NCBI GenBank assembly: GCA_964599875.1
Contig: CAZRHE010000002.1
Span: 22,415-86,414 of the forward strand
Direction of reading: 5' to 3'
From: an uncultured Bacteroidaceae bacterium
GTDB taxonomy: Bacteria > Bacillota > Clostridia > Christensenellales > CAG-917
Length of the DNA: 64,000 nt
In this document: piece after piece, positions 2,260 through 41,446 of the stretch
How positions within the stretch are numbered: the first letter of the stretch is position 1
Layout: each line of letters starts with the position of its first letter
Notes under the pieces: generated by a model
Databases searched by the model: none
The model's input: the letters and a program-made list of their open reading frames with translations, nothing else
What the model was told of the DNA's origin: nothing
Position numbers and translations under genes: made by a program

Positions 2260-2304
2260 GGATTATCTATTCCGATAGTTTATATAAACCAAAAACAATA
2301 AGAA

Positions 2305-2338
2305 AATCCCCGCCGACTTTTCGGCGGGGATTCATTTT
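2305..2338. terminator. bidirectional rho-independent terminator between rsmI and the T4CP-like gene
   Basis: ATCCCCGCCGA (2307-2317) / TCGGCGGGGAT (2321-2331), 11-bp GC-rich stem, flanked by an A-run and a T-run. Confidence 0.85.
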
Positions 2339-4157
2339 AATCATCGTAACTTGACGGCCTACTGCCTAAATTGAAGTAATCGTCTACGACTTTTTCGTAC
2401 GTAAATTGAGGCGACTTGAAAGACTTCTGCGAGTAAGGAGTGCAGGTCTTGAGCCCTTTGCTGAAATTCTTGAAAGTGCCTTGCGCCGCGCAAGCGTAAC
2501 TTCTGATGAATTGTGAAGTTATGACGGGCATATATAGGCGTTTCACGTACATTTGACCGGGCTTTATAAGGTCGAGGTCGCTGACAGGTACGAGAGCGAC
2601 TTCTTGTATGGAGTTGATTTTCGGGAGAATTTTGGATTCGAACGTCGGGACGTGATGCTTTCCGCATTCTTCGGAGAAGAGTTCTTTCGTATTTCTATTC
2701 TGTGCACCGAGGAATATATGTGAGTTGCAGTTGTCGCGAATGACGACGGATTTTTCCGAACCGTATACGATATCAATCTGTTGATAAGATTGAATTGCAA
2801 GGTGGAACCAAATATTTCTCGATCTTGCCGTCGCGATTTTGTTTTCAAAGTCCTTGATTTCGGGAATGTTGCCAAATTCGTCGAGGAGGAAGTGCAACGT
2901 CCTTGTGGATTCTCCGTTTTCCACTTTCTCGATCATTTGCCTATATACCCAATCGATGAAAAGTCCCGCGATTTGGAAATCGCTCTTTTCGTAGTCGCGA
3001 GTGATGAGAAAAATCGCAAAGGGTTGTTTTTCGGAATTATCCACGGTAATCGTGCTGTTGGTCGTTAAGGCGAATATGTGTCCGCTGAACCAGTCTTTCA
3101 TCGAGCCGTCGAAGATGCCGCAATAACTGCGCATGGTCCTCATTGCGTTGTCGAGCGCTTCGGACATAAGCAATATGGGTTTCTTCGATTTACCTTTGAG
3201 AAGAGGATGTCCGGGAAGTCGAATTTTGCCGGAGAGAATGGGCAATTTAAGCGTCGTGTAATAGTCTTGCAACGTGCTCAAGTTCATCATATCGCGGGTG
3301 AATCCGCTTTCGGGATCGATTGCGTCTTCGAGCATGCAATAAATAAGACCTTTGAGGAGTTCTTGCGCACCCATTTCCCACGTCGGATCTTTTGTGCTCT
3401 TGATGGATATCATCATATTTGCCAGTTGATTGACAAGACTGTCGATTTCGGCGCCGAGGAAGTCGCGTTTGAAATTCACGTATTCTTCGAACTTTTCTCC
3501 GTCGGGGAACGCCTTTCCGTCGTATTCGATATAGCCGTCGCTTGAATACATCTTTTTGGGGCAAGCGTATTCAAGGCTTTTTTTGACTCTACCCGTGTGC
3601 ATAAGCGCACCTTTTCCGACCGAAAGAGTGCTCATTTTCATATCGTATACTTCGAGAAGGGGATTCCATCTGTCCGAACGAATCAAATCCTTGAAGTTGA
3701 GCACGAAAGTCTGATAACCTTGGTCTTTCAAGTGCTGTGCGTTTCTTTCGAAAAGTTCACCTTTCGGGTCGGTCAGGAAGAGGTTGGGTTTGTTCTTTTG
3801 AGAGGAAATCGCACGAAGTTGCGGTTCGACGCAACCGGTGGTTTTTCCGCTTCCCGTCGTACCGATATAGATATCGTGGTAGTTGGGAAGGAAATAGAAC
3901 CTTAATTCGCATTTTCCTTTTTCTTCTGCGGAAAGTTTTTCGAATTCGTTCATCGAATACGCTTTGCCGTCGGGGGATACATAATCGCTTGCGACGGGGA
4001 ATCCGTCCACTTCGGTGTCGGGGAGGTCCTTATAGAGTACGACTTGAAGACCGTCTTCTTCAGTTAGTTCGGTGTAATCGATTTGTTTCGAGCATTCGAG
4101 ATAGTCTTCTTCGTATTTTGATCTGATTGAATCTATGATGGAATTTTTCGTAGTCAT
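2337..4157 (-). CDS. TraG/TraD/VirD4-family type IV coupling protein-like ATPase, no predicted TM anchor
   Basis: Walker A GTTGSGKT, Walker B-like LHFLLDEFGNIP and RSRNIWFHLAIQSYQQ, all typical of T4CPs. The N-terminus (MTTKNSIIDSIRSKYEEDYLE...) is hydrophilic. AAGGAGG RBS lies 5 nt before the ATG. Confidence 0.8.
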   Translation of the reverse strand: MTTKNSIIDSIRSKYEEDYLECSKQIDYTELTEEDGLQVVLYKDLPDTEVDGFPVASDYVSPDGKAYSMNEFEKLSAEEKGKCELRFYFLPNYHDIYIGTTGSGKTTGCVEPQLRAISSQKNKPNLFLTDPKGELFERNAQHLKDQGYQTFVLNFKDLIRSDRWNPLLEVYDMKMSTLSVGKGALMHTGRVKKSLEYACPKKMYSSDGYIEYDGKAFPDGEKFEEYVNFKRDFLGAEIDSLVNQLANMMISIKSTKDPTWEMGAQELLKGLIYCMLEDAIDPESGFTRDMMNLSTLQDYYTTLKLPILSGKIRLPGHPLLKGKSKKPILLMSEALDNAMRTMRSYCGIFDGSMKDWFSGHIFALTTNSTITVDNSEKQPFAIFLITRDYEKSDFQIAGLFIDWVYRQMIEKVENGESTRTLHFLLDEFGNIPEIKDFENKIATARSRNIWFHLAIQSYQQIDIVYGSEKSVVIRDNCNSHIFLGAQNRNTKELFSEECGKHHVPTFESKILPKINSIQEVALVPVSDLDLIKPGQMYVKRLYMPVITSQFIRSYACAAQGTFKNFSKGLKTCTPYSQKSFKSPQFTYEKVVDDYFNLGSRPSSYDD

Positions 4158-4167
4158 AACTGCCTCC

Positions 4168-5070
4168 TTAAAAACCTAATCTTTCGTTGGGGTCTGCGGA
4201 GGAGTTCGTGACTTCTCTCCAATCTTGGTTGCGATAGTTGTTGATATAGTACATCTTCTTGAAGTAGTCGAGTTCGGGGGAAGAGAGCGCTTCGATAAAC
4301 GAGAAGTCGATATTGTAACGCTCGTATGCGTAAACTACGTCTTGCTTTATGGAAGACGCATACACGTAATATTCTCTCGCTTTTTCGGAGTATGTGTTTT
4401 TCTCGGACGAGGGAAGAACGGTGCAGCCCGATTTAAGATACTTTTCAAAGAGTTCCGCAAGTTCGTGGAACACGGCGGAGTTTTCTTCGTCGCCGATGAG
4501 GGAATACGCGTACGAGATAAAGTGCGCGGAGGGGATATCTCCCCAGAACGTGCATTGGAAAAGTCGTCTGATGCCCTCTTTGACGTCGACGGGACAGCCT
4601 ATGCCCAGCACGCGCATAATCCCCGTTTGTCGCGTGGTAATAAGGTCGCCCGTTGCGCTCGCGGTGCTGATTTTGGAAAAACGCACGTTTGCCTGATAGG
4701 TTTTGTAGTGTGAGTAATCGAACCAACCGGGGTTGATTTCTCCTTTTGCGTCGTCGTGCATTTTTTGCAATTTGGTGAGGACGTCGCCCTTTATGTCGAA
4801 CAAAACGTCTTTATCCGAATACTCGTCCCAAAGCGTCCTGTCGCCGTATATGGCAAGTTGGTCGGTGTGCAAACCGAGCATTGTCAAATCGTTCAAGATA
4901 AGGGAAGAGCAGTCCTCGATGAAATCGTCGTCGAGGCGATATGATTTGCCGATAAAGTGAATAACTTTTTTGGCGTCCTCAATAAATGCTGGTGATAATG
5001 CGTTTGACATCACGGTCGTCGATAGCACCATGTTGTAAAACGCCTCGTAATTTTCAAAAAATTTGTTCAT
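4168..5070 (-). CDS. hypothetical protein with one Sel1/TPR-like repeat
   Basis: The segment GIMRVLGIGCPVDVKEGIRRLFQCTFWGDIPSAHFISYAY resembles a Sel1 repeat. The stop is 10 nt from the T4CP-like start, so the two form an operon. Start chosen at MNKFF (GGAG plus 9 nt); the track start at 5109 is less likely. Confidence 0.6.
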   Translation of the reverse strand: MNKFFENYEAFYNMVLSTTVMSNALSPAFIEDAKKVIHFIGKSYRLDDDFIEDCSSLILNDLTMLGLHTDQLAIYGDRTLWDEYSDKDVLFDIKGDVLTKLQKMHDDAKGEINPGWFDYSHYKTYQANVRFSKISTASATGDLITTRQTGIMRVLGIGCPVDVKEGIRRLFQCTFWGDIPSAHFISYAYSLIGDEENSAVFHELAELFEKYLKSGCTVLPSSEKNTYSEKAREYYVYASSIKQDVVYAYERYNIDFSFIEALSSPELDYFKKMYYINNYRNQDWREVTNSSADPNERLGF

Positions 5071-5100: not shown

Positions 5101-5129
5101 ATAATACAATTTTTTCTCGCAAATGTCAA
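5101..5129 (-). promoter_or_regulatory. sigma-A type promoter for the Sel1-like/T4CP-like operon
   Basis: On the minus strand: TTGACA (5129-5124), 17 nt, TATTAT (5106-5101). Confidence 0.5.
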
Positions 5130-5138
5130 TGGAGAACG

Positions 5139-5177
5139 AATATCGATATTGACCAAAATCCGAATCCGTGATATATT
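5139..5177 (+). promoter_or_regulatory. promoter for the three-paralog operon with an overlapping 12-bp palindrome
   Basis: Perfect palindrome AATATCGATATT (5139-5150) overlaps the -35 TTGACC (5149-5154). A 17-nt spacer follows, then TGA-TATATT (extended -10, 5172-5177). Confidence 0.5.
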
Positions 5178-5251: not shown

Positions 5252-6721
5252 ATGGATAATTCTAATACGTATTATATAGTTTTCAAGAATTTAAGTGAAC
5301 GCGATTTTATCACTTTAAGCGACGTTTCCGAATGGTGCGACGGCTCGCTGAAGGATGCTTTCGACGTTATCAAATTTTTGGCTTCCAACGGTGCGGTTAA
5401 GGACGTAGGAAAAGGGAAATTCAAAGTTATCGCGGACGAGGGAATATTTGAAAATATGCGCAGAGAAATCAACTGCTATAAACGCGCGATAAGCGAGGAA
5501 AGATTGCAAGAAATCGCGGATACTATGCCGCTGCAACTGCTTTCCGTCATAGGGTTTCTCGAAAGAAATCCCGGCGCGACTTACGTGGAAATCAGAGATT
5601 TCGTGCGTGAAGTCGTGGAGAAAGACCCTCTTTATTATCTTGCGGAAAGCGGAATAATCGTAGCCGTGCAAGACGGTTACATAATGCGTTATTACAACAC
5701 GATTCCAACCGAAACGATAAATCGCTTGCCCCATCTTTTATCAAACAGTATAGCGACGAACAAAGGCGTCGGATTGACTGAAAGGTTTGCCTTTTGCGGA
5801 TTCGACTCGTGGGAAGAATGGCATTACGGCGAGGACGAGGAAATCGAAAATCCGCAAGAAGTCGAAATCGAAGAGGTAGACCTCATAACGCGGATAATGC
5901 GCAAAATGATCGGCAACGAGTCTTTTGCGGATGAAGAAGCGGAAAGGAAAAAGGAATATCTTGCGTCGAAAATCACAGACGTTTTCAAGGATAGGACTTT
6001 TCCCGTCGTGTTCGAAAATTCGAAAGGCGTGAAATTGGCGATTTCGGATGCGACCATACACGGCGATCCGTACGACTGGTTAAAAAAATGCGTTATGGAG
6101 AGCGACGATGCCACCATACTCGAATTTTTCGGCGTTGACGTCAATTTGCCCGAGTTGAGAAAAACGGAATGTATTGCGATATCTCTACTTATTGACAGTC
6201 TAACTTTGAAGTATAACGACAAAGTCGGAGAAGTCCATATGGGTATGAACCTGGATACGAACGAAGCCGACAATATTACTTATAGATATTTGATGCGCTA
6301 CGGTGCGCTTAAATTCAACGCCGAAGTTGATACGAGCGAAACCCGATTAAGTGATTTCCGTTTCCATCAAAAACGTGTTTGGTGTTGCGTCACGGACGTT
6401 CCCGTCACCCTCGAAAACAAAGAGGTGCCGGGCGTTACTTTGCATGCGCGCGTGTCTTTGAACGGGGTCGCAAAGTACGTCGTAAAAAGCGCGGCGTACA
6501 CAAACTTGATAAGCGATATAAAACCTTTCCTCGGAAAGTATTTCACAAAGGAAAAGGACCCTTTCGACTCGTACTTGGCTGAAGCGTACGTCGTCATGGA
6601 AAGCGAACGGAAGTTGGTACTTGAAAAAGAACTGGTTACACAACTGAGTGAAGAAGAGGTGGCGTCTATCAACGGCGATACCGGAATAACAATCAAATGC
6701 GTTTTTAAGGATAAAAAGTAG
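5252..6721 (+). CDS. hypothetical protein, paralog A (two wHTH-like modules + acidic linker + shared C-domain)
   Basis: N-terminus ITLSDVSEWCDGSLKDAFDVIKFLASNGAVKDVGKGKFKVI aligns with the N-termini of the next two ORFs. GGAAGGA RBS. Confidence 0.75.
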   Translation: MDNSNTYYIVFKNLSERDFITLSDVSEWCDGSLKDAFDVIKFLASNGAVKDVGKGKFKVIADEGIFENMRREINCYKRAISEERLQEIADTMPLQLLSVIGFLERNPGATYVEIRDFVREVVEKDPLYYLAESGIIVAVQDGYIMRYYNTIPTETINRLPHLLSNSIATNKGVGLTERFAFCGFDSWEEWHYGEDEEIENPQEVEIEEVDLITRIMRKMIGNESFADEEAERKKEYLASKITDVFKDRTFPVVFENSKGVKLAISDATIHGDPYDWLKKCVMESDDATILEFFGVDVNLPELRKTECIAISLLIDSLTLKYNDKVGEVHMGMNLDTNEADNITYRYLMRYGALKFNAEVDTSETRLSDFRFHQKRVWCCVTDVPVTLENKEVPGVTLHARVSLNGVAKYVVKSAAYTNLISDIKPFLGKYFTKEKDPFDSYLAEAYVVMESERKLVLEKELVTQLSEEEVASINGDTGITIKCVFKDKK

Positions 6722-6730
6722 GCGGGATAT

Positions 6731-8539
6731 ATGGAAAACGAAAGAAACAAAATTGAACAAAACTGCGAGAATAATTTGTCTTACCGTATTTTCGACCTAC
6801 TTGAACACGGCGACGTTTTGACTTTCGACGACGTCGTGGAGTGTTGCGATACTCCGTCGAAGGCGTTTTCTACTATGAAATATCTTGTGAGAACGGGTTT
6901 TTTGAAAGAGAAAAGAAACGGAAAGTATGCGATTTTGTGTGGTGCGGAGGATATTCTCGAAATAAGGCGGGCAACTAAAAATTTCAAGAAAAGATACAGC
7001 GAGGATGAAATCGAAAAGTTTTGCAACCTTTCGCCTTCCGCTTGTATAACTACGTTGGATGTTATCGATGCAAACGGCGGTGCGACTTATCTCGATATTT
7101 ATGCGGAAGCGCGTTTCACCGTGCCTTATAATCCTTTGCCGTATTTGCTGAATTACGGCGCGGTCGTTTATTATGACGGGAAGTATTACAGCACTTTTGA
7201 CACCGAAGTCGTTAGAAATACGTATGTAAATTGTCACGGCGAAGGGTTGTCCCGCGAAGAGCGTGAACTCAATTTAAGGCGGTGGAGATGGAAAGAACCG
7301 ACCGACGATATCGATTCCTATTTTTCTCGATTGAAAAACGAAACCGACTGGGACGGCTGGGGATATGACGATTATGCAGATTACGGCGTCGTTCCTTTGG
7401 ATTACGACTTTGAAATCGGTGACGTAACGGAAGAAGAAGTCGCCGAAAAATTAAACGAATTCGTCGACGCAAGAATAAATGCGTACAAAGAAGAACTCGA
7501 TAAAGAAGATGACGACGAAGACGATGAAGACGACGAAGAAGAGAACAACCGCCGCAGAGATTTGCTTAGGAAACTTTCAAGAGCGGAAGCGACGAGCATA
7601 ATCAGAGATCCGTCGGACGATCACCTGCGCGAACGATTGTATGTTAATATGACGCGCAAAAACAGATTCGACGATTATCGCATCAACGTAATCGGCGAAA
7701 ACGGCAAAAAAGTTAGGGAGAAAGAACAATTATTCAACATGAGCGGAGGCTTAAATAATATTGCTTACAATTTGGCGTATGAGGACGAAACCGAATTGCA
7801 AGGACTTTTGGACGTCATAAACTTCGACGCAAAGGATTATAAGATCACTCGCGGCAAGGCGATATACGATATCGTCGACAAAATGTACGTTCAAGTAAGT
7901 GCGGAAATTGCGGAAATCGAAAAGGCGGACGACACTTATACTTATCTTAAATACGACGAAATCGACGTCTTGAAAGAAATGGTCGAAAACGGCAAAGCGT
8001 CGGGGCTCGAAGATAAAGTGTTTTTGGACGTAATGGCAGAAGAATTGTTTAGACAATCATTCGACGATTTGGACCACGACGGCGTCCTCGTCGAACTCGC
8101 ATTGAAAAGGGAATTGACGGTTTTTCTCACTTTCATAAAGGACGAGGAAAAACTAAACGAACTCAGAGACGACCAAACGAAGTTTGCGGTGAGCACCGCC
8201 GTCACTGAGATTGTTTTCGTCAACGAATACGGGAAAGAATTGAACGCATGGCTGAACGTTGAAAGACGTCCCGACGTACTTCTCGAAATTGCGTTTGCTT
8301 TCAACGGAGAAGATGCGGTGAAGGATTATTTCGGCGTTGCGGAGATGCCCGTCGACGTCTACGACCCGTTTTTGGATATGGACGAACTCGTCGAATCGGT
8401 TGAAATTCTCGTCGGAGACGAACACGTCCCTCTCGACATGCACGATTGCGTTTTACCCCAATTGGAGCAAGAACAAATACTTAAACTGCGCGGGAAGAAA
8501 ATATTCCGCATAACCACTAACCCTAATTTGAGAGGTTAA
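6731..8539 (+). CDS. hypothetical protein, paralog B (two wHTH-like modules + poly-acidic linker + shared C-domain)
   Basis: LTFDDVVECCDTPSKAFSTMKYLVRTGFLKEKRNGKYAIL; a RRWRWKE motif; the acidic run DKEDDDEDDEDDEEEN; the C-terminal block ESVEILVGDEHVPLDMHDCVLPQLEQEQILKL matches paralog C. Confidence 0.75.
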   Translation: MENERNKIEQNCENNLSYRIFDLLEHGDVLTFDDVVECCDTPSKAFSTMKYLVRTGFLKEKRNGKYAILCGAEDILEIRRATKNFKKRYSEDEIEKFCNLSPSACITTLDVIDANGGATYLDIYAEARFTVPYNPLPYLLNYGAVVYYDGKYYSTFDTEVVRNTYVNCHGEGLSREERELNLRRWRWKEPTDDIDSYFSRLKNETDWDGWGYDDYADYGVVPLDYDFEIGDVTEEEVAEKLNEFVDARINAYKEELDKEDDDEDDEDDEEENNRRRDLLRKLSRAEATSIIRDPSDDHLRERLYVNMTRKNRFDDYRINVIGENGKKVREKEQLFNMSGGLNNIAYNLAYEDETELQGLLDVINFDAKDYKITRGKAIYDIVDKMYVQVSAEIAEIEKADDTYTYLKYDEIDVLKEMVENGKASGLEDKVFLDVMAEELFRQSFDDLDHDGVLVELALKRELTVFLTFIKDEEKLNELRDDQTKFAVSTAVTEIVFVNEYGKELNAWLNVERRPDVLLEIAFAFNGEDAVKDYFGVAEMPVDVYDPFLDMDELVESVEILVGDEHVPLDMHDCVLPQLEQEQILKLRGKKIFRITTNPNLRG

Positions 8540-8540
8540 T

Positions 8541-10274
8541 ATGAGCGAGAAAACAGGCAAGAACGAAATGTCCGAAATGTTGATAAAAAAATTGACGGCA
8601 AGCGGAGAATTGACCTTTGATTCCGTTCTCGACGAGTGCGGAGGAAATGCGGTCAAGGCTTTTGCGTATATTAAATATCTTGTCGAAAACGGCTATATCC
8701 GCGACAAGAAAAAGGGCAAATTCGAGGTTTTGGATAAGGCTAAAAACGTCGGCAATTACAAAAAGCAATTTCCGAGAAGTTTCATAAAAAACTTAATCGA
8801 CGTCGTTCATCGCAATTCCATACGCGCGCTTTTCGACCTTGAAGACAAGGGCGGTGTGGAGTGCGAGGAGTTTTTGGAGAGTTGCAAGGAAGAATTCACC
8901 TATAATCCCATACCTTTTTTGGAATCTTGCGGCGCAATAGTTTGCCGCGACGGCGCGTATTTCAACGCGATTCCCGTCGAATCTTTCGGCGATTTGTTGG
9001 ATTTTCTCACGTACACGATAAGAGGGGATTTGAAAGATTACGAGCGCGAAATTTGTTTCAAGCGTTGGGCTTGGGAGGAGGACGAGGATATCTCGCCTTA
9101 TGATTGCGATTACGAATATTTCGAATACGACGAGAGCAAAGGATATTGTCCCGATACGAGCGACTACGACGAGTATTACGAAGAGGACGACCGCGACGAA
9201 GAGGGTAGAATCATCTTGGACCCCGACGAAGAAAAACTCTTGATGGAGATTATTGCGTATCAGGAGGAGTTGAAAAAGGAAGAAGAGGATACGGCGGACG
9301 AAACGCCCGACGAGGATTCGAACGATAAAAAGCATAGCCCGTATGAATACGTGCGCATTTGCGAAACCGAGCACGACAGAGAAAGAGAAACAAAAATAAG
9401 AGAGAGAACGCTAAGGAATATTTGCAGTTTGAAAAGACTTATGCACGCCACTCTCGTGAACGAGCACGGCATGAAACTCGAAACGGATTTCATCGTGACG
9501 GACAGTTTAAAGGACGTAGTCGTGCACGCTATCAGGCACAGTTCGATAGATGAATTAAAGGGCTTTTTCGGCAGAGAAATCGACGCAAGGGACTTGAAAT
9601 CGACGGACGGCTACTATTTTTACGGTTTCGTCAAAGATATCTATATGGAGTTGGACGGTTCGAGCGTGCGCTCCGAAAGAATCGTCTATCCCAACACCGT
9701 AAGTCTTCCGAAATCCATGAGATACTGGTTGAAAGATAAAATGATTCCCGAGGTTAAGGACAAGGAATACGTCGTCGTCGACAAAAAGGAATCTTTCTCC
9801 GTGCCGTTTATTAACTATCTACCCGACGGATTCAGCACCCAACTCAACGATAAAAAAACGCTCACTTTCTACGTGCGACTGGAAAGCGACGGCGTGCTTA
9901 AAAGCGTAAACAAAATGCAACGAGAAACCGCCGTCGAAAAGTTCGAAAGAAAGTTGCTGTTCACAAGTAAACGTGCGGACCTTTTGATTTCGTATATGAA
10001 TTTGGACAGATTTCCTCTCGACCTTTTGAGAATGACGTTCGCGTTAAGCGGCGCGGAAGAAGTGCATAAATTCGCGCACGGTACGAAAATGGATAAGGAA
10101 AATTTGGATTATGCGTCCGCCGCGCTTGACGAAGTGGATAGCGTGAGTATTATAATAGACGACGAGGAAACCGTCCTCGACAACGAGCGCACCGTCTTGA
10201 AACAACTCGAATATAAGGATATATTGCGAATGGATTACGGCGTGGTGTTCCGCGTGAAATTCAAGGGAGAATAA
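8541..10274 (+). CDS. hypothetical protein, paralog C (two wHTH-like modules + acidic linker + shared C-domain)
   Basis: LTFDSVLDECGGNAVKAFAYIKYLVENGYIRDKKKGKFEVL; a KRWAWEE motif; an acidic region; starts 1 nt after the paralog B stop. Confidence 0.75.
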   Translation: MSEKTGKNEMSEMLIKKLTASGELTFDSVLDECGGNAVKAFAYIKYLVENGYIRDKKKGKFEVLDKAKNVGNYKKQFPRSFIKNLIDVVHRNSIRALFDLEDKGGVECEEFLESCKEEFTYNPIPFLESCGAIVCRDGAYFNAIPVESFGDLLDFLTYTIRGDLKDYEREICFKRWAWEEDEDISPYDCDYEYFEYDESKGYCPDTSDYDEYYEEDDRDEEGRIILDPDEEKLLMEIIAYQEELKKEEEDTADETPDEDSNDKKHSPYEYVRICETEHDRERETKIRERTLRNICSLKRLMHATLVNEHGMKLETDFIVTDSLKDVVVHAIRHSSIDELKGFFGREIDARDLKSTDGYYFYGFVKDIYMELDGSSVRSERIVYPNTVSLPKSMRYWLKDKMIPEVKDKEYVVVDKKESFSVPFINYLPDGFSTQLNDKKTLTFYVRLESDGVLKSVNKMQRETAVEKFERKLLFTSKRADLLISYMNLDRFPLDLLRMTFALSGAEEVHKFAHGTKMDKENLDYASAALDEVDSVSIIIDDEETVLDNERTVLKQLEYKDILRMDYGVVFRVKFKGE

Positions 10275-10278
10275 AGAT

Positions 10279-10653
10279 ATGGATTTCAAAAAATTGTTAT
10301 CCGGTTACGTCGATGAAATCACGATAAGACAATGGGACGACTTCGCGGTATTTTCAGTCCCCGTCTATTTCATGGGCACGATGGAAAGTATGGCGATAAG
10401 CGTGCGCGAGATTGAAAGCGGATTCGTCTTTTCGGATTGTCATCGCACCGTTGATTATTGGGAAGAACTGGATTTAGACACCACGCAATACGAAGAGAAA
10501 ATCGAAAAAATTCGCGATTCGTTCAATATCGAAAGACGGGGCAACGAATTTATCATGACCGCACAAAGCGAATGTGAAACTGTGTTGATGAATATGTTCG
10601 GATACTTTTTGCAAGGGATAATTATGCTTGCAAACGTAGCGATTGTAAAGTAG
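10279..10653 (+). CDS. small hypothetical protein, possibly DUF1828-like
   Basis: Starts 4 nt after paralog C, with the RBS AAGGGAGA inside the upstream gene. The pattern ISVREIESGFVFSDCHRTVDYWEEL...KIEKIRDSFNIERRGNEF recalls DUF1828. This is a recollection only. Confidence 0.55.
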   Translation: MDFKKLLSGYVDEITIRQWDDFAVFSVPVYFMGTMESMAISVREIESGFVFSDCHRTVDYWEELDLDTTQYEEKIEKIRDSFNIERRGNEFIMTAQSECETVLMNMFGYFLQGIIMLANVAIVK

Positions 10654-35965: not shown

Positions 35966-38692
35966 ATGAAGAAAATAATGATCGGAATATTGATAATCAT
36001 TCCCGTGATTATCCTTGCGGTCGTATCCGCAGTGTCCGTCGTGGTGTCCACGAGGGCGCACATAGGCGTTGAAGAAGTGTCTTTCGACCGCAACTCTGTT
36101 GAAATCGTTTTCGGCGACGAGTCGTACGATATCAACGATTACCTCACCGTCACCGTCCTTCCCGAAAAGGCGACGGACAAAACTTGCGTGTGGGAAATAG
36201 TCGAAGACGGCATGCAATGCTTCGACGCGGACTATAAGGACGCATACGACTACTATCTCGCGCATTTAGGCGAGGCGAACAACAAAGAGGTTTTGCCCCC
36301 CGTCACCCTCGTGGACGCGGACGGCAACAAAGCGGACACCAACACGACGGGCAAGTTCAAAGTAAACGCAAGTTGCTCGTTCATTCTCGAATGTAGGGCG
36401 GAAGGAAAAACCGCAAGATGCACGGTCATCGCACTCGATTACGAACTCAAATCCGTCGTTGTCAAAGGTGACGTAGTGAATATCAAAGAAAACGAAAACC
36501 TTTTGCTCTCCGCGGAATTGTCCCCCGTGGACGCACTTGTGGAGAGAGTGGAATGGATATCCTCGGACGAATCTATCCTCACCGTCGATAGCAACGGCGT
36601 AGTCGTCGGCAAGAAAGAGGGAAGTGCTGAAATCGTCGCAAGAGCGTACGTAGAGGGCGGTTACGTCGAAAGCGCGCCTTACGTTATAACCGTTGAAAAG
36701 AACGCATCCTTGCTTGGAAACGCAGTTTCTACGGACGTCAGAAGAATTCCTTTGTCCGCATTCGGAATTGCGGAAAACGATATCGTAAACCTTGTCAACG
36801 CGAGTATAGAAGGGGATGAAATCGTCATCGCGGAGGATAAGAACGAGGCGCAAATCGAAACCGCATACGGCGTAGTCACCCTGACCGTCGAAGACGGAAT
36901 AGTCATCAAAAACAAAAACCTCTTCGCATACGTGGACGGCGAAAGCAGTTTCGTGTTTGCAGTGGGCGAAAAACTCAATCTCGAAGTCGTGTGGAAGAGT
37001 GTATTCAAGGCGGATAAACCTCAGGTTACTTGGAGCGTAGACAACGACAGAATCGCTACCGTCACGGACGGCGTGCTCGAAGGAAAGGGCAACGGCATAG
37101 TGACCGTGACCGCGACTTGCGGAGATTATAGCGACGTTCTCACTCTCAACGTGAGAGAAAAAGCGGTGTCCGTCATTATGGATAAGACGGCGGACGAATA
37201 TACGGACGCGGGACTTGCGCTCGAATACGTAATCCCCACTCTCAAATACGAGAATATAGAGGCAAACAAAAACAAGGTTGCAAACTATATTGACGTTGAG
37301 TTGGTGCGTCCCGCACCCCCTGAAAGTGAAAAAGCGGCGTTTTACGAGGCATTCAAGTTCGAACTTCTCGAAAACGGAGAAGTTAGCGACAAAGGCTACT
37401 TTGTGAGCAACAGACTTTATCTCAATCACGAAAAAGTGACCGAGAAAACAGTCCTAACCGTCAAGGTGACCGCAAAATATCCGAAGTATCCCGATAGCAC
37501 GCTTTCTTACGACAGCGTTGAAATCACGGTCGTGGACGGCGTGGAAGTGAAAAATTACGTTGAACTTAAATCCGCAACGGACGAGAAATACAGCGTGTGC
37601 CTCGTGAACGATATAGAACTTTTCGACGGCGACGAAAGCCAGAAAGTGTACGAAAACAATCAAAGCACTTATCTTTTCTGCAGAAAGGCGTACTACGGCA
37701 ACGGATTTATGTTCTCCGCAAAACCGGGACAACTGACCAACACCATGTGTGCATTGCTCTTCGTGGTCGACGATAACGCGGTTATATCCAACGGCGTTTT
37801 CCGTGCAAATACGGGCGTAGGCGATATCATCACATCGGAAGATACCGAAGGACTGCAAGGCTCTTGCGTTATCGCAGGCGCGAGATATTCGGGTGATAGG
37901 GACGCAAACGGCAATAGATTGTTCGTCGAAAACATAAGGACGGAATACAGCATTTTCGAAAACGGCAACGTGCTTTACAAGGCACTCACTTGCGAAAACT
38001 ATATCGAAGGTTGTATCTTCCGCAACAGCGCGGGCGTGGGCATTTACACTCGTACTTGGGCGTTGTTGGGTGAACCATCCGTAAAACGCGATACTGCTAT
38101 GTATACAAAACTCACCACCAAAAACTGCATTATGTCCAACCTTACGGGGCTCGGCATAAACTTCGACTTCAACAAAGTCACCAATGCGGGTGAGGAATAC
38201 AGACAACAACTCATCGACGAAGGCAGAATGACCACGTACAACCAACTCGGATTCCTCGATATATACAACTGGCAATCCGTCAATACGATGAAATTCTTGC
38301 CGCAAGACGTGCTCGGAAACGGAATGGAAGGGGTCGTCGATATGTTCAACTCCCTCATCCGCGACAAGATAGCGGACAAGCGACTCGACCCGTATCGTTA
38401 CACTTATAACCGCGAGGACTATTTCTGTCTTGGAATGATGAGCACGGGCGCGCTTGACAAGTCCTGTTTGACGGGCGTCACGCAAGACCCGAGAATCAAG
38501 ATTTTCAACAGCGATATGTTCGGCACGGATATAAAGAAAGTCATCGCAAACCCCGTGTGGATAATCACCTACGGCAACGACGTGGACGATATCATCCCCG
38601 GCAGCGAATATAAGATAAACAAAAAACTCATCAACAGATTGCACGGAATAGGAGTGGAATACGGCGAAGAAGTGCCCTTCTCCTTCATCTAA
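35966..38692 (+). CDS. membrane-anchored surface protein with Big_2 Ig-like domains and a C-terminal beta-helix-like region (paralog A)
   Basis: N-terminal anchor MKKIMIGILIIIPVIILAVVSAVSVVV; Big_2-like segments (VEWISSDESILTVDSNGVVVGKKEGSAEIVARA and VTWSVDNDRIATVTDGVLEGKGNGIVTVTA); repetitive xCxFRNSAGVGIY / NCIMSNLTGLGINF turns. Confidence 0.8.
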   Translation: MKKIMIGILIIIPVIILAVVSAVSVVVSTRAHIGVEEVSFDRNSVEIVFGDESYDINDYLTVTVLPEKATDKTCVWEIVEDGMQCFDADYKDAYDYYLAHLGEANNKEVLPPVTLVDADGNKADTNTTGKFKVNASCSFILECRAEGKTARCTVIALDYELKSVVVKGDVVNIKENENLLLSAELSPVDALVERVEWISSDESILTVDSNGVVVGKKEGSAEIVARAYVEGGYVESAPYVITVEKNASLLGNAVSTDVRRIPLSAFGIAENDIVNLVNASIEGDEIVIAEDKNEAQIETAYGVVTLTVEDGIVIKNKNLFAYVDGESSFVFAVGEKLNLEVVWKSVFKADKPQVTWSVDNDRIATVTDGVLEGKGNGIVTVTATCGDYSDVLTLNVREKAVSVIMDKTADEYTDAGLALEYVIPTLKYENIEANKNKVANYIDVELVRPAPPESEKAAFYEAFKFELLENGEVSDKGYFVSNRLYLNHEKVTEKTVLTVKVTAKYPKYPDSTLSYDSVEITVVDGVEVKNYVELKSATDEKYSVCLVNDIELFDGDESQKVYENNQSTYLFCRKAYYGNGFMFSAKPGQLTNTMCALLFVVDDNAVISNGVFRANTGVGDIITSEDTEGLQGSCVIAGARYSGDRDANGNRLFVENIRTEYSIFENGNVLYKALTCENYIEGCIFRNSAGVGIYTRTWALLGEPSVKRDTAMYTKLTTKNCIMSNLTGLGINFDFNKVTNAGEEYRQQLIDEGRMTTYNQLGFLDIYNWQSVNTMKFLPQDVLGNGMEGVVDMFNSLIRDKIADKRLDPYRYTYNREDYFCLGMMSTGALDKSCLTGVTQDPRIKIFNSDMFGTDIKKVIANPVWIITYGNDVDDIIPGSEYKINKKLINRLHGIGVEYGEEVPFSFI
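36551..37449 (+). repeat. copy 1 of a near-identical tract of about 0.9 kb shared by the two surface-protein paralogs
   Basis: 36576-37449 is identical to 39375-40248 (constant offset 2799). The sense-frame translation and two antisense-frame translations in the ORF track are all identical across the tract. The first mismatches are at 36574-36575 and 37450. Confidence 0.9.
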
Positions 38693-38761
38693 TCTCGCGT
38701 GAGTGCGTAACAATAAATAACGGCGCGCGTGCCTGCGCACGCGCCACCTATACGGAGTAAT

Positions 38762-41446
38762 ATGAAAAAAGTCACGATAGGAATATTAATCGTAATACCG
38801 GTCATCATTATGCTCGTCGTATCTCTCGTGTCCGTCGTCGTGTCCGCAAACACGCATATAGGCGTGGAAAGCGTGACCCTCGACAAGTCGAGAATAGACG
38901 ACGTGCCTTTCGGACTGGATATTTACGATATCAACGATTATCTCACCGCAACCGTCCTTCCCGAAAAGGCGAAGAATAAGACTTGCACTTGGGATATCGA
39001 CGAGGGAAGTATAAAATTCGACAACTCGGAGTTGCAAGAGGAGTACGAGAATTATCTCGAAAACCCCTCCGACCCCTCGGTGAAAGTCGTCCTTGCTCCC
39101 GTCTATCTCGTGGATGCGGACGGCAATAGGACGGATACCAACACCACGGGCAAATTCAAAGTCACGGACAGTTGCTCTTTCGTCATCGTTTGCAATGCGG
39201 AAGATAAATCCGCAACCTGTCAGGTTTTCGTCACTGACGTCACTTTGAAAGCAGTTGCGGTGCAAAGCGAAGTTTCTGCGATTAAGGAAAGCGAAAACGC
39301 ACTCCTTTCCGTCCTGCTCAATCCCGTAGGCGCAATCGTTGATAGACTTGAATGGATATCCTCGGACGAATCCGTCCTCACCGTCGATAGCAACGGCGTA
39401 GTCGTCGGCAAGAAAGAGGGAAGTGCTGAAATCGTCGCAAGAGCGTACGTAGAGGGCGGTTACGTCGAAAGCGCGCCTTACGTTATAACCGTTGAAAAGA
39501 ACGCATCCTTGCTTGGAAACGCAGTTTCTACGGACGTCAGAAGAATTCCTTTGTCCGCATTCGGAATTGCGGAAAACGATATCGTAAACCTTGTCAACGC
39601 GAGTATAGAAGGGGATGAAATCGTCATCGCGGAGGATAAGAACGAGGCGCAAATCGAAACCGCATACGGCGTAGTCACCCTGACCGTCGAAGACGGAATA
39701 GTCATCAAAAACAAAAACCTCTTCGCATACGTGGACGGCGAAAGCAGTTTCGTGTTTGCAGTGGGCGAAAAACTCAATCTCGAAGTCGTGTGGAAGAGTG
39801 TATTCAAGGCGGATAAACCTCAGGTTACTTGGAGCGTAGACAACGACAGAATCGCTACCGTCACGGACGGCGTGCTCGAAGGAAAGGGCAACGGCATAGT
39901 GACCGTGACCGCGACTTGCGGAGATTATAGCGACGTTCTCACTCTCAACGTGAGAGAAAAAGCGGTGTCCGTCATTATGGATAAGACGGCGGACGAATAT
40001 ACGGACGCGGGACTTGCGCTCGAATACGTAATCCCCACTCTCAAATACGAGAATATAGAGGCAAACAAAAACAAGGTTGCAAACTATATTGACGTTGAGT
40101 TGGTGCGTCCCGCACCCCCTGAAAGTGAAAAAGCGGCGTTTTACGAGGCATTCAAGTTCGAACTTCTCGAAAACGGAGAAGTTAGCGACAAAGGCTACTT
40201 TGTGAGCAACAGACTTTATCTCAATCACGAAAAAGTGACCGAGAAAACGGTCCTAACCGTGAAAGTCAGTGCGAAGTATCCCAAATTCCCGACGAGCAGT
40301 CTTTCCCGCGATAACGTGGAAATAACCGTCGTGAATGCAGTCAAGGCAACCGATTTCGACACCTTGAAAGCCGCAACCGAAGAAAAAATCAACGTGTGTC
40401 TTGTGAATAATATCGAAATCGACCACTCTATCCGCACGGATTCTCCCGTTCTTTACAACTCGGCGGGTTACTACGGCAACGGATTTATGCTCTCCGCAGA
40501 GCCCGGTCAACTCACAAACACCCACGCCGCGCTTATGATTTGCAATGCGGATAACTCTTTCGTGTCCAACGGCATATTCCGCGCAAACCGCGTCGTAGGG
40601 GATAGTATCTCGCAAGACCAGACCGAAGGTTTCCAAGGCTCCGCCATTATGTTCGGCACCAGAGGACGCACGCACGGCGATTACGAGAACGGCAATTATT
40701 GCTATCTCTCCAACACGAGAGCGGAATATTGTATCTTCGAAAACGGCAACGCGCTTTGCAAAGTGTTCACTTGCGAAACCACGTTAGAGGGTTGTATTCT
40801 CCGCAACTGCGCGGGCGTCGGCATCTACGTGCCTACGAGAACTTTCGGAAACGACCCCGACACCATGACCGTCAGTTACTCGAAACTTACCACCAAAAAC
40901 TGCGTCATGTCCAACCTTGTCGGCATGAGCCTTTCTTTCGAGTATAAAGACTATGCGCTCGACGCAAACAAAGAGATCATCGTAGAAAAACGCGACGCAC
41001 TCCTTGCGGAAGGCAAAAACACTTTCTACAAGCAAGAAGGTTTCCTCGATATATACAACTGGCAATCCGTCAACACGATGAATCTTCTTCCGAGCGACGT
41101 TTTCGGAAGCGGTGATACCGACGTCGCGCTTGCACAGGGCATAAACACCCTCCTTCGCGAAAGACTTTTGGATAAGAAGATCGAGGATTATCGCTATTCG
41201 TATAACCGCGAGGAATTCTTCCTCATCGGCTTTATGAGCACGGGCGTAAAATATCCGACTTATCTCGAATGGTCGTTTGAAGACGAAAGACTGACTTTCG
41301 TCACGAGCGATATCTTGAGCGGCTTGGATATCATCGCGAATACGGTCTATCTCTTCACGTACAAGAATACCGTCGAAGATATCGTGCCGAGCAGCGATTA
41401 TAAGATAAACAAAAAACTCATAAATAAATTGCACGGAGTCGGGTAA
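38762..41446 (+). CDS. membrane-anchored surface protein with Big_2 domains and a beta-helix-like region (paralog B)
   Basis: MKKVTIGILIVIPVIIMLVVSLVSVVV. Same architecture as paralog A. GGAG RBS before ATG 38762; the track start at 38729 is an upstream GTG extension. Confidence 0.8.
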   Translation: MKKVTIGILIVIPVIIMLVVSLVSVVVSANTHIGVESVTLDKSRIDDVPFGLDIYDINDYLTATVLPEKAKNKTCTWDIDEGSIKFDNSELQEEYENYLENPSDPSVKVVLAPVYLVDADGNRTDTNTTGKFKVTDSCSFVIVCNAEDKSATCQVFVTDVTLKAVAVQSEVSAIKESENALLSVLLNPVGAIVDRLEWISSDESVLTVDSNGVVVGKKEGSAEIVARAYVEGGYVESAPYVITVEKNASLLGNAVSTDVRRIPLSAFGIAENDIVNLVNASIEGDEIVIAEDKNEAQIETAYGVVTLTVEDGIVIKNKNLFAYVDGESSFVFAVGEKLNLEVVWKSVFKADKPQVTWSVDNDRIATVTDGVLEGKGNGIVTVTATCGDYSDVLTLNVREKAVSVIMDKTADEYTDAGLALEYVIPTLKYENIEANKNKVANYIDVELVRPAPPESEKAAFYEAFKFELLENGEVSDKGYFVSNRLYLNHEKVTEKTVLTVKVSAKYPKFPTSSLSRDNVEITVVNAVKATDFDTLKAATEEKINVCLVNNIEIDHSIRTDSPVLYNSAGYYGNGFMLSAEPGQLTNTHAALMICNADNSFVSNGIFRANRVVGDSISQDQTEGFQGSAIMFGTRGRTHGDYENGNYCYLSNTRAEYCIFENGNALCKVFTCETTLEGCILRNCAGVGIYVPTRTFGNDPDTMTVSYSKLTTKNCVMSNLVGMSLSFEYKDYALDANKEIIVEKRDALLAEGKNTFYKQEGFLDIYNWQSVNTMNLLPSDVFGSGDTDVALAQGINTLLRERLLDKKIEDYRYSYNREEFFLIGFMSTGVKYPTYLEWSFEDERLTFVTSDILSGLDIIANTVYLFTYKNTVEDIVPSSDYKINKKLINKLHGVG
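39350..40248 (+). repeat. copy 2 of the near-identical tract of about 0.9 kb
   Basis: See copy 1. Outside the tract the paralogs are only roughly 55-60 percent identical at protein level, by eye. Confidence 0.9.

Follow-up and report, generated by a model that had tools for sequence, protein, structure and literature searches.

We have found that three consecutive genes, which we refer to as A, B and C, encode diverged paralogs of an undescribed and very rare bacterial protein family that matches no curated protein family or defence-system model. The genes lie at positions 5252 to 10274 of a 64,000-nucleotide stretch of DNA (contig CAZRHE010000002.1 of assembly GCA_964599875.1, positions 22,415 to 86,414, from an uncultured Bacteroidaceae bacterium placed by GTDB within the Clostridia), and this whole stretch is referred to below as the window. 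The three proteins are predicted to share an architecture in which a pair of winged helices (WH1 and WH2) is followed by an acidic disordered linker and, across the family, by one or two ubiquitin-fold (beta-grasp) modules, referred to here as ubiquitin-like (Ubl) modules, and we refer to the family as WH-Ubl. Within a cassette that is otherwise strongly conserved, and that also encodes an ATPase resembling the VirD4/TraG type IV coupling proteins (T4CPs), the paralogs are the part that is hypervariable and differs in copy number. The explanation that we favour, and hold tentatively, is that A, B and C are tandemly duplicated subunits of this ATPase module, Ubl-bearing but non-conjugated, which serve it as adaptors or specificity factors. 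Physical docking, the binding of targets and any role in conflict or defence are proposed here on the basis of fold, synteny and evolutionary rates.

Paralogy and predicted architecture of A, B and C

The three genes and the predicted domains of their products, given in amino acids (aa) with nucleotide positions in brackets, are:

5252..6721, + strand: paralog A, 489 aa, pI 4.8; WH1-WH2 ~aa 6-163 (5267-5740), acidic linker aa 166-245 (5747-5986), Ubl-like module 1 aa 246-379 (5987-6388), Ubl-like module 2 aa 380-489 (6389-6718)
6731..8539, + strand: paralog B, 602 aa, pI 4.4; WH1-WH2 aa 15-169 (6773-7237), acidic linker aa 171-309 (7241-7657), which includes the DKEDDDEDDEDDEEEN run, Ubl-like module 1 with an insert aa 310-487 (7658-8191), Ubl-like module 2 aa 488-602 (8192-8536)
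8541..10274, + strand: paralog C, 577 aa, pI 4.8; WH1 aa 7-63 and WH2 aa 79-142 (8565-9008), disordered acidic linker aa 161-296 (9021-9428) with one helix at 228-250, Ubl-like module 1 with an insert aa 297-464 (9429-9932), Ubl-like module 2 aa 465-577 (9933-10271)

An initial annotation, made from the sequence alone, had proposed that these genes are three tandem paralogs, and formal alignment bears this out. Pairwise BLASTP aligns B with C end to end (~600 aa, 26% identity, E=2e-40), A with B over the N-terminal 173 aa (29% identity, E=2e-18) and A with C over 199 aa (26% identity, E=1e-13). The C-terminal blocks, which had also been described as related, can be aligned directly in B and C, whereas the C-terminal half of A has no significant similarity to B or C in a direct comparison (BLASTP E=0.36; hhalign E=0.21). 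This half of A is joined to the others by family intermediates: residues 10-428 of A align with the relative P0008 (E=1e-12), P0008 aligns with P0005 (E=2e-136), and residues 328-444 of P0005 align with residues 283-413 of C (E=3e-4). A hidden Markov model (HMM) trained on 16 C-terminal modules, all of them from other genomes, likewise detects a pair of modules in A (27.9 and 17.6 bits, where the best of 900 shuffled sequences reached 9.5 bits) and scores module 2 of B at 23.5 bits. Through these intermediates and this leave-out profile, sequence comparison indicates that the C-terminal half of A is homologous to that of B and C, and module 1 of B is probably Ubl-like, judging from its collinearity with C.

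When A, B and C are compared with their counterparts in the 97%-identical strain L001, the ratio of nonsynonymous to synonymous substitution rates (dN/dS) is 0.49, 0.15 and 0.19, respectively; the genes are under purifying selection and are therefore coding. We note two local differences between the strains. Five consecutive residues in Ubl-like module 1 of A (residues 329-333; window 6236-6250) read HMGMN in the window and NRNIR in L001, a patch that could be a hypervariable loop or a compensated frameshift, and in L001 the poly-Asp/Glu tract of B (window 7490-7550) has 5 extra residues, the underlying GAx-rich repeat being polymorphic in length.

The suggestion that the N-terminal part holds two winged-helix modules is supported by an AlphaFold2 model of full-length C, made from a 23-sequence family alignment (mean predicted local distance difference test, pLDDT, of 67). 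In this model the helix-helix-helix-strand-strand order of a winged helix is predicted twice, in WH1 (helices 7-21, 26-32 and 37-49; strands 53-55 and 60-63) and in WH2 (helices 91-103, 108-118 and 123-129; strands 133-136 and 139-142), both at a pLDDT of ~80. Two more helices follow WH2 and end at a conserved Trp, after which come a low-confidence acidic stretch with one helix (181-295) and alpha/beta modules at 300-372 and 469-574 (pLDDT 80-92). Weak Pfam matches in isolated members of the family point the same way (TrmB, 5e-6; HTH_24, 3e-4; MarR, 7e-4), as does a Foldseek search of a viral library, in which the N-terminal part matched a MarR-type HTH phage protein, other HTH proteins and a 60-aa HTH domain (template modelling score, TM-score, of 0.74) and the C-terminal part matched polyubiquitins. 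A, B and C themselves fall below threshold against the winged-helix families of Pfam (best, HTH_45, E=0.15, 12.5 bits against a cutoff of 25.5). With net charge taken as a proxy, WH1 carries -4 to +3 and WH2 -6 to -8 in the three paralogs, and the WH modules are net acidic in nearly all family members. Of a Trp-rich motif that had been described after the second module, one invariant Trp (W185 of B) is kept and the rest is not. The acidic linkers that had been described are real, with Asp and Glu accounting for up to 57% of residues in 30-aa windows of B.

The initial annotation overlooked the ubiquitin-fold pair predicted in the C-terminal half and the link to the neighbouring VirD4-like ATPase; what it described as a conserved C-terminal block is the final helix and strand of Ubl-like module 2. 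When the model of C was compared with the PDB, Foldseek returned almost exclusively tandem ubiquitin-like proteins, in alignments that cover both modules. The matches included linear di-ubiquitin, the tandem UBL of OASL, ISG15, talin F0F1 and the PI3K RBD, with probabilities of 0.97-1.0 for the tandem ubiquitin-like matches (0.99-1.0 for the top ones) and 0.69-0.85 for PI3K-alpha. Because the TM-scores of multi-domain superpositions are low, individual modules were analysed, 20 of them in an alignment and one (C 465-577) as a model of its own. The alignment follows the pattern b1-b2-a1-'FFG'-b3-b4-'QLxEEE' helix-b5, and the single-module model (pLDDT 91.3; predicted TM-score 0.84) has the predicted element order of a beta-grasp fold. 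Its top 50 PDB matches all belong to the ubiquitin superfamily (probability 0.90-1.0, and at least 0.97 in 49 of the 50), their folds being those of ubiquitin, MUB, UBX, SUMO, ISG15, RBD and RAWUL, and the target-normalised TM-score is 0.52-0.70 for targets of Ubl size (75-111 residues). A profile of the 20 modules found no match among PDB sequences, and per-module Pfam scans gave nothing relevant, with no sequence link to the ubiquitin, ThiS/MoaD, YukD or UBX families.

A rare, fast-evolving family in a conserved chromosomal slot

That A, B and C belong to no named family, as had been suspected, was confirmed by comparison with Pfam, NCBIfam, PHROGs, PADLOC and PDB sequences, none of which gave a significant match; PADLOC-DB 2.0 likewise holds no match to the three proteins or to p124, the small protein encoded after them. 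Queried with C, a word-indexed database of 5.8 billion proteins yielded nothing beyond the 97% ortholog of C; the 23-sequence alignment, a query swamped by acidic words, also yielded nothing more. When 1.84 billion cluster representatives were searched exhaustively by HMMER with a profile of A, B and C minus the acidic linker (E<=1e-3), 22 proteins were found, 3 of them the window's own and 19 of them relatives, and the only close homologs are those in the same locus of L001. The family profile had no match among GTDB species genomes, and the WH module had none in IMG/VR, so a phage origin is not indicated.

The WH-WH module is the only part common to all 22 members; the C-terminal part may be absent, may hold one or two Ubl-like modules or, in one case, holds DUF6273. 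The shortest architecture is illustrated by P0007 (240 aa, WH-WH followed only by a basic tail), whose gene lies 18 nt after that of a 1475-aa SNF2/ResIII-type helicase (L026 243-5410) and directly precedes ctsR-mcsA-mcsB-clpC. The WH-WH module, then, also pairs with other large ATPases. We note that the called starts of P0004 (L003 2831-3000) and of a 592-aa ORF (open reading frame) in L009 (8870-9049) add ~50 N-terminal residues (MITFFRCIVNS...) that are unique in the family; these starts are probably mis-called, and the true start is likely MKTDKD.

The other features of the cassette in the window are:

2304..2333: terminator-like hairpin, bidirectional, between rsmI (+ strand) and the T4CP-like gene (- strand)
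2337..4157, - strand: VirD4/TraG-like (T4CP-like) ATPase, soluble, 606 aa
4168..5070, - strand: p300, Sel1-like-repeat protein, divergent from A
5101..5177, both strands: promoter-like sites, divergent and back to back
10279..10653, + strand: p124, small acidic protein of 124 aa, 4 nt 3' of C

A, B, C and p124 lie on one strand and are separated in the ORF list by only 9, 1 and 4 nt, which argues that they form one operon. Facing them, p300 starts with an ATG at 5070 (300 aa), and a TTG at 5109 could open a longer ORF. The promoter-like site of the - strand reads TTGACA-17-TATTAT (5129..5101) and that of the + strand TTGACC-17-TG-TATATT (5149..5177), with an extended -10; both -35 boxes and the extended -10 are kept in L002, L003 and L005. 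The hairpin, which has a 12-13 bp stem with 8 GC pairs and T-runs on both strands, marks the left boundary of the cassette. Beyond it lie the genes for L9, a methyltransferase and rsmI, and the right flank encodes an FMN reductase, a DnaC/IstB-like and a DnaD/DnaB_2-like protein. In the rest of the window, the large ORFs that were scanned proved to be ordinary genes of the chromosome (PolA, iPGM, ABC transporters, Big_2 proteins, BatA/vWA). Among the ORFs scanned, which were those of the cassette flanks and the largest of the window rather than every ORF, we found no type IV secretion system (T4SS) channel or mating-pair-formation gene, relaxase, VirB4, integrase or oriT-type element, and a search for flanking repeats or att-like sites around the cassette gave none that was credible.

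The ATPase matches Pfam T4SS-DNA_transf (1.1e-31), TraG-D_C (1e-23) and TrwB_AAD_bind (1.5e-19), and its Walker A (GTTGSGKTT) and Walker B (HFLLDEFG) motifs are intact. Its nearest curated family is NCBIfam conju_CD1115, a coupling protein of an ICE (integrative and conjugative element), which it matches at 220 bits, under the cutoff of 250; PADLOC gave a partial P-loop match to mad8 (3.7e-8), and a profile of the ATPase matched no PDB sequence at E<=1e-3. It has no transmembrane segment or N-terminal membrane anchor (maximum 19-aa Kyte-Doolittle hydropathy 0.89), and because it lacks any hydrophobic segment we regard it as a soluble, coupling-protein-like motor. The p300 protein has a profile match to the Sel1 repeat protein 6ork_A (E=6e-6) and, in PADLOC, only a weak one to PDC-M60C (E=0.004); it has at least 181 homologous clusters of ~300 aa, the few named ones coming from Christensenellales, Clostridia and Clostridiales metagenome-assembled genomes (MAGs). 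The p124 protein stands after the last paralog in every syntenic locus and has a hydrophobic C-terminal end; its only family match is a weak one to DUF1828 (E=0.14). The idea that p124 is a YbjN/CesT-like chaperone was rejected at the sequence level (hhalign against the 160-aa family described below, E=0.21).

Five further contigs, from related Clostridia MAGs, contain the same slot: rsmI, then the T4CP-like gene and p300 diverging from one to three paralogs and p124, then in some cases an aldo-keto reductase gene, then the FMN reductase, DnaC-like and DnaD-like genes. Neighbours of the SpoVT and DnaD type make the Bacteroidaceae label carried by three GTDB MAGs with the locus doubtful. The slot holds three family copies in the window and in L001, two, the second having lost WH2, in L004 and L005, and a single one in L002, L003 and L009. 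Across these loci, identity to the window proteins is 73-90% for housekeeping neighbours, 63-65% for the ATPase, 64-66% for p300, 40-44% for p124 and 20-30% for the WH-Ubl family, and single-copy orthologs are only ~25-30% identical where the adjoining ATPase is ~65% identical. The dN/dS values agree, at 0.15-0.49 for the paralogs against 0.03 for the ATPase and 0.04 for p300.

These comparisons bear on how the three copies should be read. The initial annotation saw in them three old copies that had been retained either as a hetero-oligomer or as subfunctionalised specificity factors. Close relatives carry only one or two copies at this position, which makes an obligate A-B-C hetero-trimer unlikely, and since the family evolves so fast, deep divergence need not mean great age, which leaves the antiquity of the copies uncertain. 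Subfunctionalised specificity factors, by comparison, would fit both the fast divergence and the variable copy number.

The T4CP-like/p300 pair (window 2337-5070) also occurs outside this slot (L015-L023). It is strongly conserved, its chromosomal surroundings are non-mobile and often include a gene for a 160-aa YbjN/CesT-like protein, and it looks like an uncharacterised system in its own right. Homologs of the 160-aa protein accompany the pair in L012, L015, L017 and L019-L021, and a protein with transmembrane segments, a GFGxTG Rossmann motif and a RyR-like domain accompanies it in L017 and L020. In L023 (619-4600) p300, the T4CP-like ATPase (664 aa) and two ClpP genes follow one another on one strand, so that a VirD4-type ATPase and a ClpP pair are directly linked within an operon. 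A diverged family member, P0013, lies in a rearranged cassette (T4CP-like, p302 / CesT-like, 91 aa, ClpP, ClpP, P0013). Further members (P0006/P0148, P0011 and P0021) are each encoded directly 3' of a transmembrane/RyR-like gene (L007, L024, L011 and L013), with a spacer of 16 nt in L024 and overlapping ORFs in L011 and L013, and a ClpP pair lies upstream in L007, L024 and L025. The RyR assignment is below threshold in Pfam (E 5e-5 to 1e-3), and the two groups of transmembrane proteins have only short collinear motifs in common. A 767-aa multi-pass membrane protein is encoded ~170 bp to the left of the window edge (L001 1-1276); it is homologous to the transmembrane/Rossmann/'EHERWN' protein of L017 (E=9e-94), and its gene is separated from that of the ATPase by those for L9, the methyltransferase and rsmI and by a small DUF1540-like gene.

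In one genome, L024 (1-21086; ENA ERZ28614678 scaffold_43) and L016 form a single array that diverges from p300 and the T4CP-like gene:

Start of the array: HTH_3, CesT-like, a vWA + PP2C-like + kinase triad (TerY-P-like), TerD, leucine-rich-repeat protein
Middle of the array: TIR + 18xTPR (1212 aa), ClpP, ClpP, transmembrane + Rossmann + RyR-like (874 aa), WH-Ubl (361 aa)
End of the array: PHP, TIR-STAND (926 aa), Apyc1-like MBL, WYL

This is a defence-island setting, and the array is a candidate immune cluster. A logic that runs from TIR to a RyR effector is conceivable here, since RyR domains have recently been shown to bind or cleave cyclic ADP-ribose (cADPR) immune signals (PMC13232231).

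We also note, elsewhere in the window, two adjoining ~905-aa ORFs (35966-41446) with a Big_2 domain at an equal relative position in both; these look like another tandem paralog pair and are probably surface proteins.

Proposed adaptor subunits and the alternatives

In the explanation that we favour, A, B and C would act as non-enzymatic accessory subunits of a soluble, VirD4-like hexameric ATPase and its Sel1-repeat partner. The Ubl modules would dock the protein onto the ATPase ring or onto partners of the ATPase, the acidic WH pair would bind a variable target, probably protein rather than DNA, and the long, disordered acidic segment could be either a flexible tether or the place where the motor takes hold. 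Duplication to three copies would then widen the range of targets rather than build an obligate hetero-trimer. UBX and UBL domains are known to dock on AAA+ rings, which offers a functional analogy. We favour this role because a DNA regulator, a conjugatable modifier and a conjugation module are all unlikely, for the reasons given below, and what remains is a modular, non-enzymatic protein encoded beside a ring ATPase.

Several observations weigh against it. The Ubl assignment comes from predicted structure, with no sequence match to any Ubl family, and module 1 of B and module 2 of C score weakly with the leave-out HMM. The p300/T4CP-like pair is found in at least 181 clusters, against 22 WH-Ubl proteins; because it is so much more widespread, the ATPase module must work without WH-Ubl in most genomes, and the adjacency could in part reflect insertion into a permissive site. 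Some members without Ubl modules lie elsewhere, as P0007 does after its SNF2-like helicase. Finally, the cassette of the window has neither the ClpP pair nor the 160-aa protein.

One alternative, which we judge unlikely while taking it seriously, is that A, B and C are cargo that the VirD4-like ATPase translocates or unfolds, with p124 as a dedicated chaperone and with the WH-WH module as a handle for a variable payload, in the manner of polymorphic secreted effectors. A common WH-WH part joined to C-terminal parts that range from nothing to DUF6273 would be expected of such proteins, as would fast evolution and variation in copy number; a small acidic protein always comes next after the paralogs, and in other genomes small YbjN/CesT-like proteins go with the ATPase. 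However, the ATPase lacks a membrane anchor, the scanned ORFs include no channel or mating-pair-formation genes, A, B and C contain no toxin or enzyme domain, and p124 is not detectably chaperone-like.

It is also possible, if rather improbable, that WH-Ubl is a labile inhibitor that keeps the transmembrane/RyR-like protein, or another effector, inactive until the T4CP-like ATPase and ClpP remove it on a signal, much as an antitoxin is removed; the acidic disordered segment would then be the site at which degradation initiates and the Ubl modules a docking tag. The close spacing or overlap of the transmembrane/RyR-like and WH-Ubl genes, seen at four loci in three lineages, is consistent with this, as are the ClpP pairs directly upstream of these genes or directly after the ATPase (L023), the TIR-TPR and TIR-STAND proteins that flank the cluster in L024 and the behaviour of RyR domains towards cADPR signals. 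Yet in the clade of the window the corresponding transmembrane gene is ~3 kb away, behind three housekeeping genes and the DUF1540-like gene, with no ClpP pair, and the case is further weakened by the sub-threshold RyR assignment and by the short motifs that are all the two transmembrane groups share. No FtsK/VirD4-type ATPase, moreover, is known to feed ClpP.

A more elaborate proposal, which we regard as doubtful, draws these elements into a single, hitherto unseen bacterial machine for proteolysis or translocation, in which a soluble ring ATPase of the VirD4/FtsK type, rather than an AAA+ unfoldase, would work with a dedicated ClpP pair, the WH-Ubl proteins would be its ubiquitin-fold shuttle or degron subunits, the three paralogs would be diversified variants for target recognition, and the whole would serve TIR-to-RyR (cADPR-type) immunity.

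The winged-helix prediction, the weak TrmB, MarR and HTH_24 matches in some relatives and a perfect 10-bp palindrome, ATATCGATAT (5141-5150), which lies between the two -35 boxes in the 142-nt divergent spacer, might together suggest that A, B and C are transcription factors whose tandem winged helices bind DNA, for example at this palindrome, and whose three copies regulate the cassette. The initial annotation had likewise suggested that DNA binding be assayed at a palindrome at 5139-5150. We find this improbable. The palindrome is not kept in L002, L003 or L005 and recurs only in the near-identical sister strain, and it was rejected as an operator because it is not conserved between species. 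Since the WH modules are acidic as well, in proteins of pI 4.4-4.8, a classical DNA-binding regulator is unlikely; regulators, in addition, rarely evolve 3x faster than their operon or bear 100-aa poly-acidic linkers and Ubl modules. Taken as a whole, then, the earlier interpretation holds for an unnamed family with a shared architecture, and diversified copies are plausible, but DNA binding is not evident and an obligate hetero-oligomer is unlikely.

Still less probable is a decayed mobile element, an ICE remnant in which A, B and C would be former relaxosome or accessory proteins drifting without function. The TraG-D_C domain of the VirD4-like protein, its nearest curated family and the dN/dS of 0.49 for A might be read in this way. 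Against it, the chromosomal slot is kept across genomes whose flanking genes are only 63-90% identical, no ORF is disrupted and dN/dS stays below 1 for every member, and the ATPase and p300 are strongly constrained (0.03-0.04). The scanned ORFs include no relaxase or channel gene, the ATPase is without an anchor, and the position of the locus in the chromosome is stable; with integrase, VirB4 and flanking repeats also lacking where they were sought, the cassette is most probably not a working or recently decayed conjugation module.

That the tandem Ubl modules are modifiers conjugated to targets, as BilA and ISG15 are, is barely credible: di-ubiquitin, ISG15 and OASL are the nearest folds of the model and B ends in ...NLRG, but the ends of the family are heterogeneous (KDKK, NLRG, KFKGE, VSEV), with no conserved C-terminal Gly or Gly-Gly, Pfam annotation revealed no E1, E2 or JAB/deubiquitinase gene in any locus examined, and the modules are the C-terminal parts of large multidomain proteins.

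If adaptor subunits are indeed what A, B and C are, they would represent a bacterial family in which ubiquitin-fold domains, joined to a winged-helix pair, are used without being conjugated, as accessory parts of a VirD4-type motor that no longer takes part in conjugation, and they would be a second case, after YukD/EccD, of Ubl domains that partner ATPases of the FtsK-HerA class. The wider gene set, an uncharacterised network found in many Clostridia MAGs (soluble T4CP-like ATPase, Sel1-repeat protein, YbjN/CesT-like protein, ClpP pair and transmembrane/RyR-like protein), possibly ties nucleotide sensing by RyR domains and regulated proteolysis to a coupling-protein-like motor, and this link can be tested. 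In the literature searched, the WH-WH/acidic/Ubl(-Ubl) architecture and the soluble VirD4-like ATPase network appear to be undescribed, and no paper describes the combination of VirD4, ClpP and an RyR domain. Even if the function proves mundane, the locus is a clean example of a hypervariable, copy-number-variable component within a conserved cassette.

Comparison with known systems

The cassette resembles T4CP systems, such as DotL with IcmS/IcmW/LvgA and TraD with TraM, in that its ATPase belongs to the VirD4/TraG family and has a TraG-D_C domain, and in that small accessory proteins are encoded with it and its neighbours vary. It differs from them in that the ATPase has no N-terminal anchor, in that no T4SS channel, relaxase or oriT-type element was found in the scanned ORFs of the window and in that its two genes reside on the chromosome and are conserved across a lineage of Clostridia. 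With the BilA and ISG15-like proteins of bacterial ubiquitination-like defence operons the family shares two predicted ubiquitin-fold domains in tandem, here too in a bacterial protein, and ISG15 and di-ubiquitin are its best structural matches; unlike those modifiers, A, B and C lack E1, E2 and deubiquitinase neighbours and a Gly-Gly end, and their Ubl pair is the C-terminal half of a protein of 490-600 aa.

A functional analogy may be drawn with UBL/UBX adaptors (the shuttle factors Rad23/Dsk2 and the UBX proteins FAF1/p47), which likewise combine a docking domain of ubiquitin fold with a flexible linker and, apart from these, a domain for binding, and the UBX domain of FAF1 is among the top structural matches of the single module (3r3m_A, 3qq8_B). 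Those adaptors are eukaryotic and dock on AAA+ rings (p97, 26S), whereas the ATPase here has a RecA/FtsK-type fold. For the winged-helix pair, the resemblance is to the protein-binding tandem winged helices of ScpB/kite proteins and ESCRT-II subunits; the pair, being acidic, more plausibly binds protein than DNA. No SMC/kleisin or ESCRT genes lie near A, B and C.

The nearest precedent comes from type VII secretion, where the non-conjugated Ubl protein YukD/EsaB and the N-terminal Ubl domain of EccD are encoded with substrate-handling ATPases of the FtsK-HerA superfamily (PMC1779556). The modules of A, B and C have no sequence match to YukD, and no WXG100 substrates or type VII membrane genes are present among the annotated neighbours of the cassette, where no search was aimed at them. 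The partner here is a soluble VirD4-type ATPase rather than the membrane protein EssC/EccC, and the predicted Ubl module, instead of standing by itself, is duplicated and fused to a winged-helix pair and an acidic linker.

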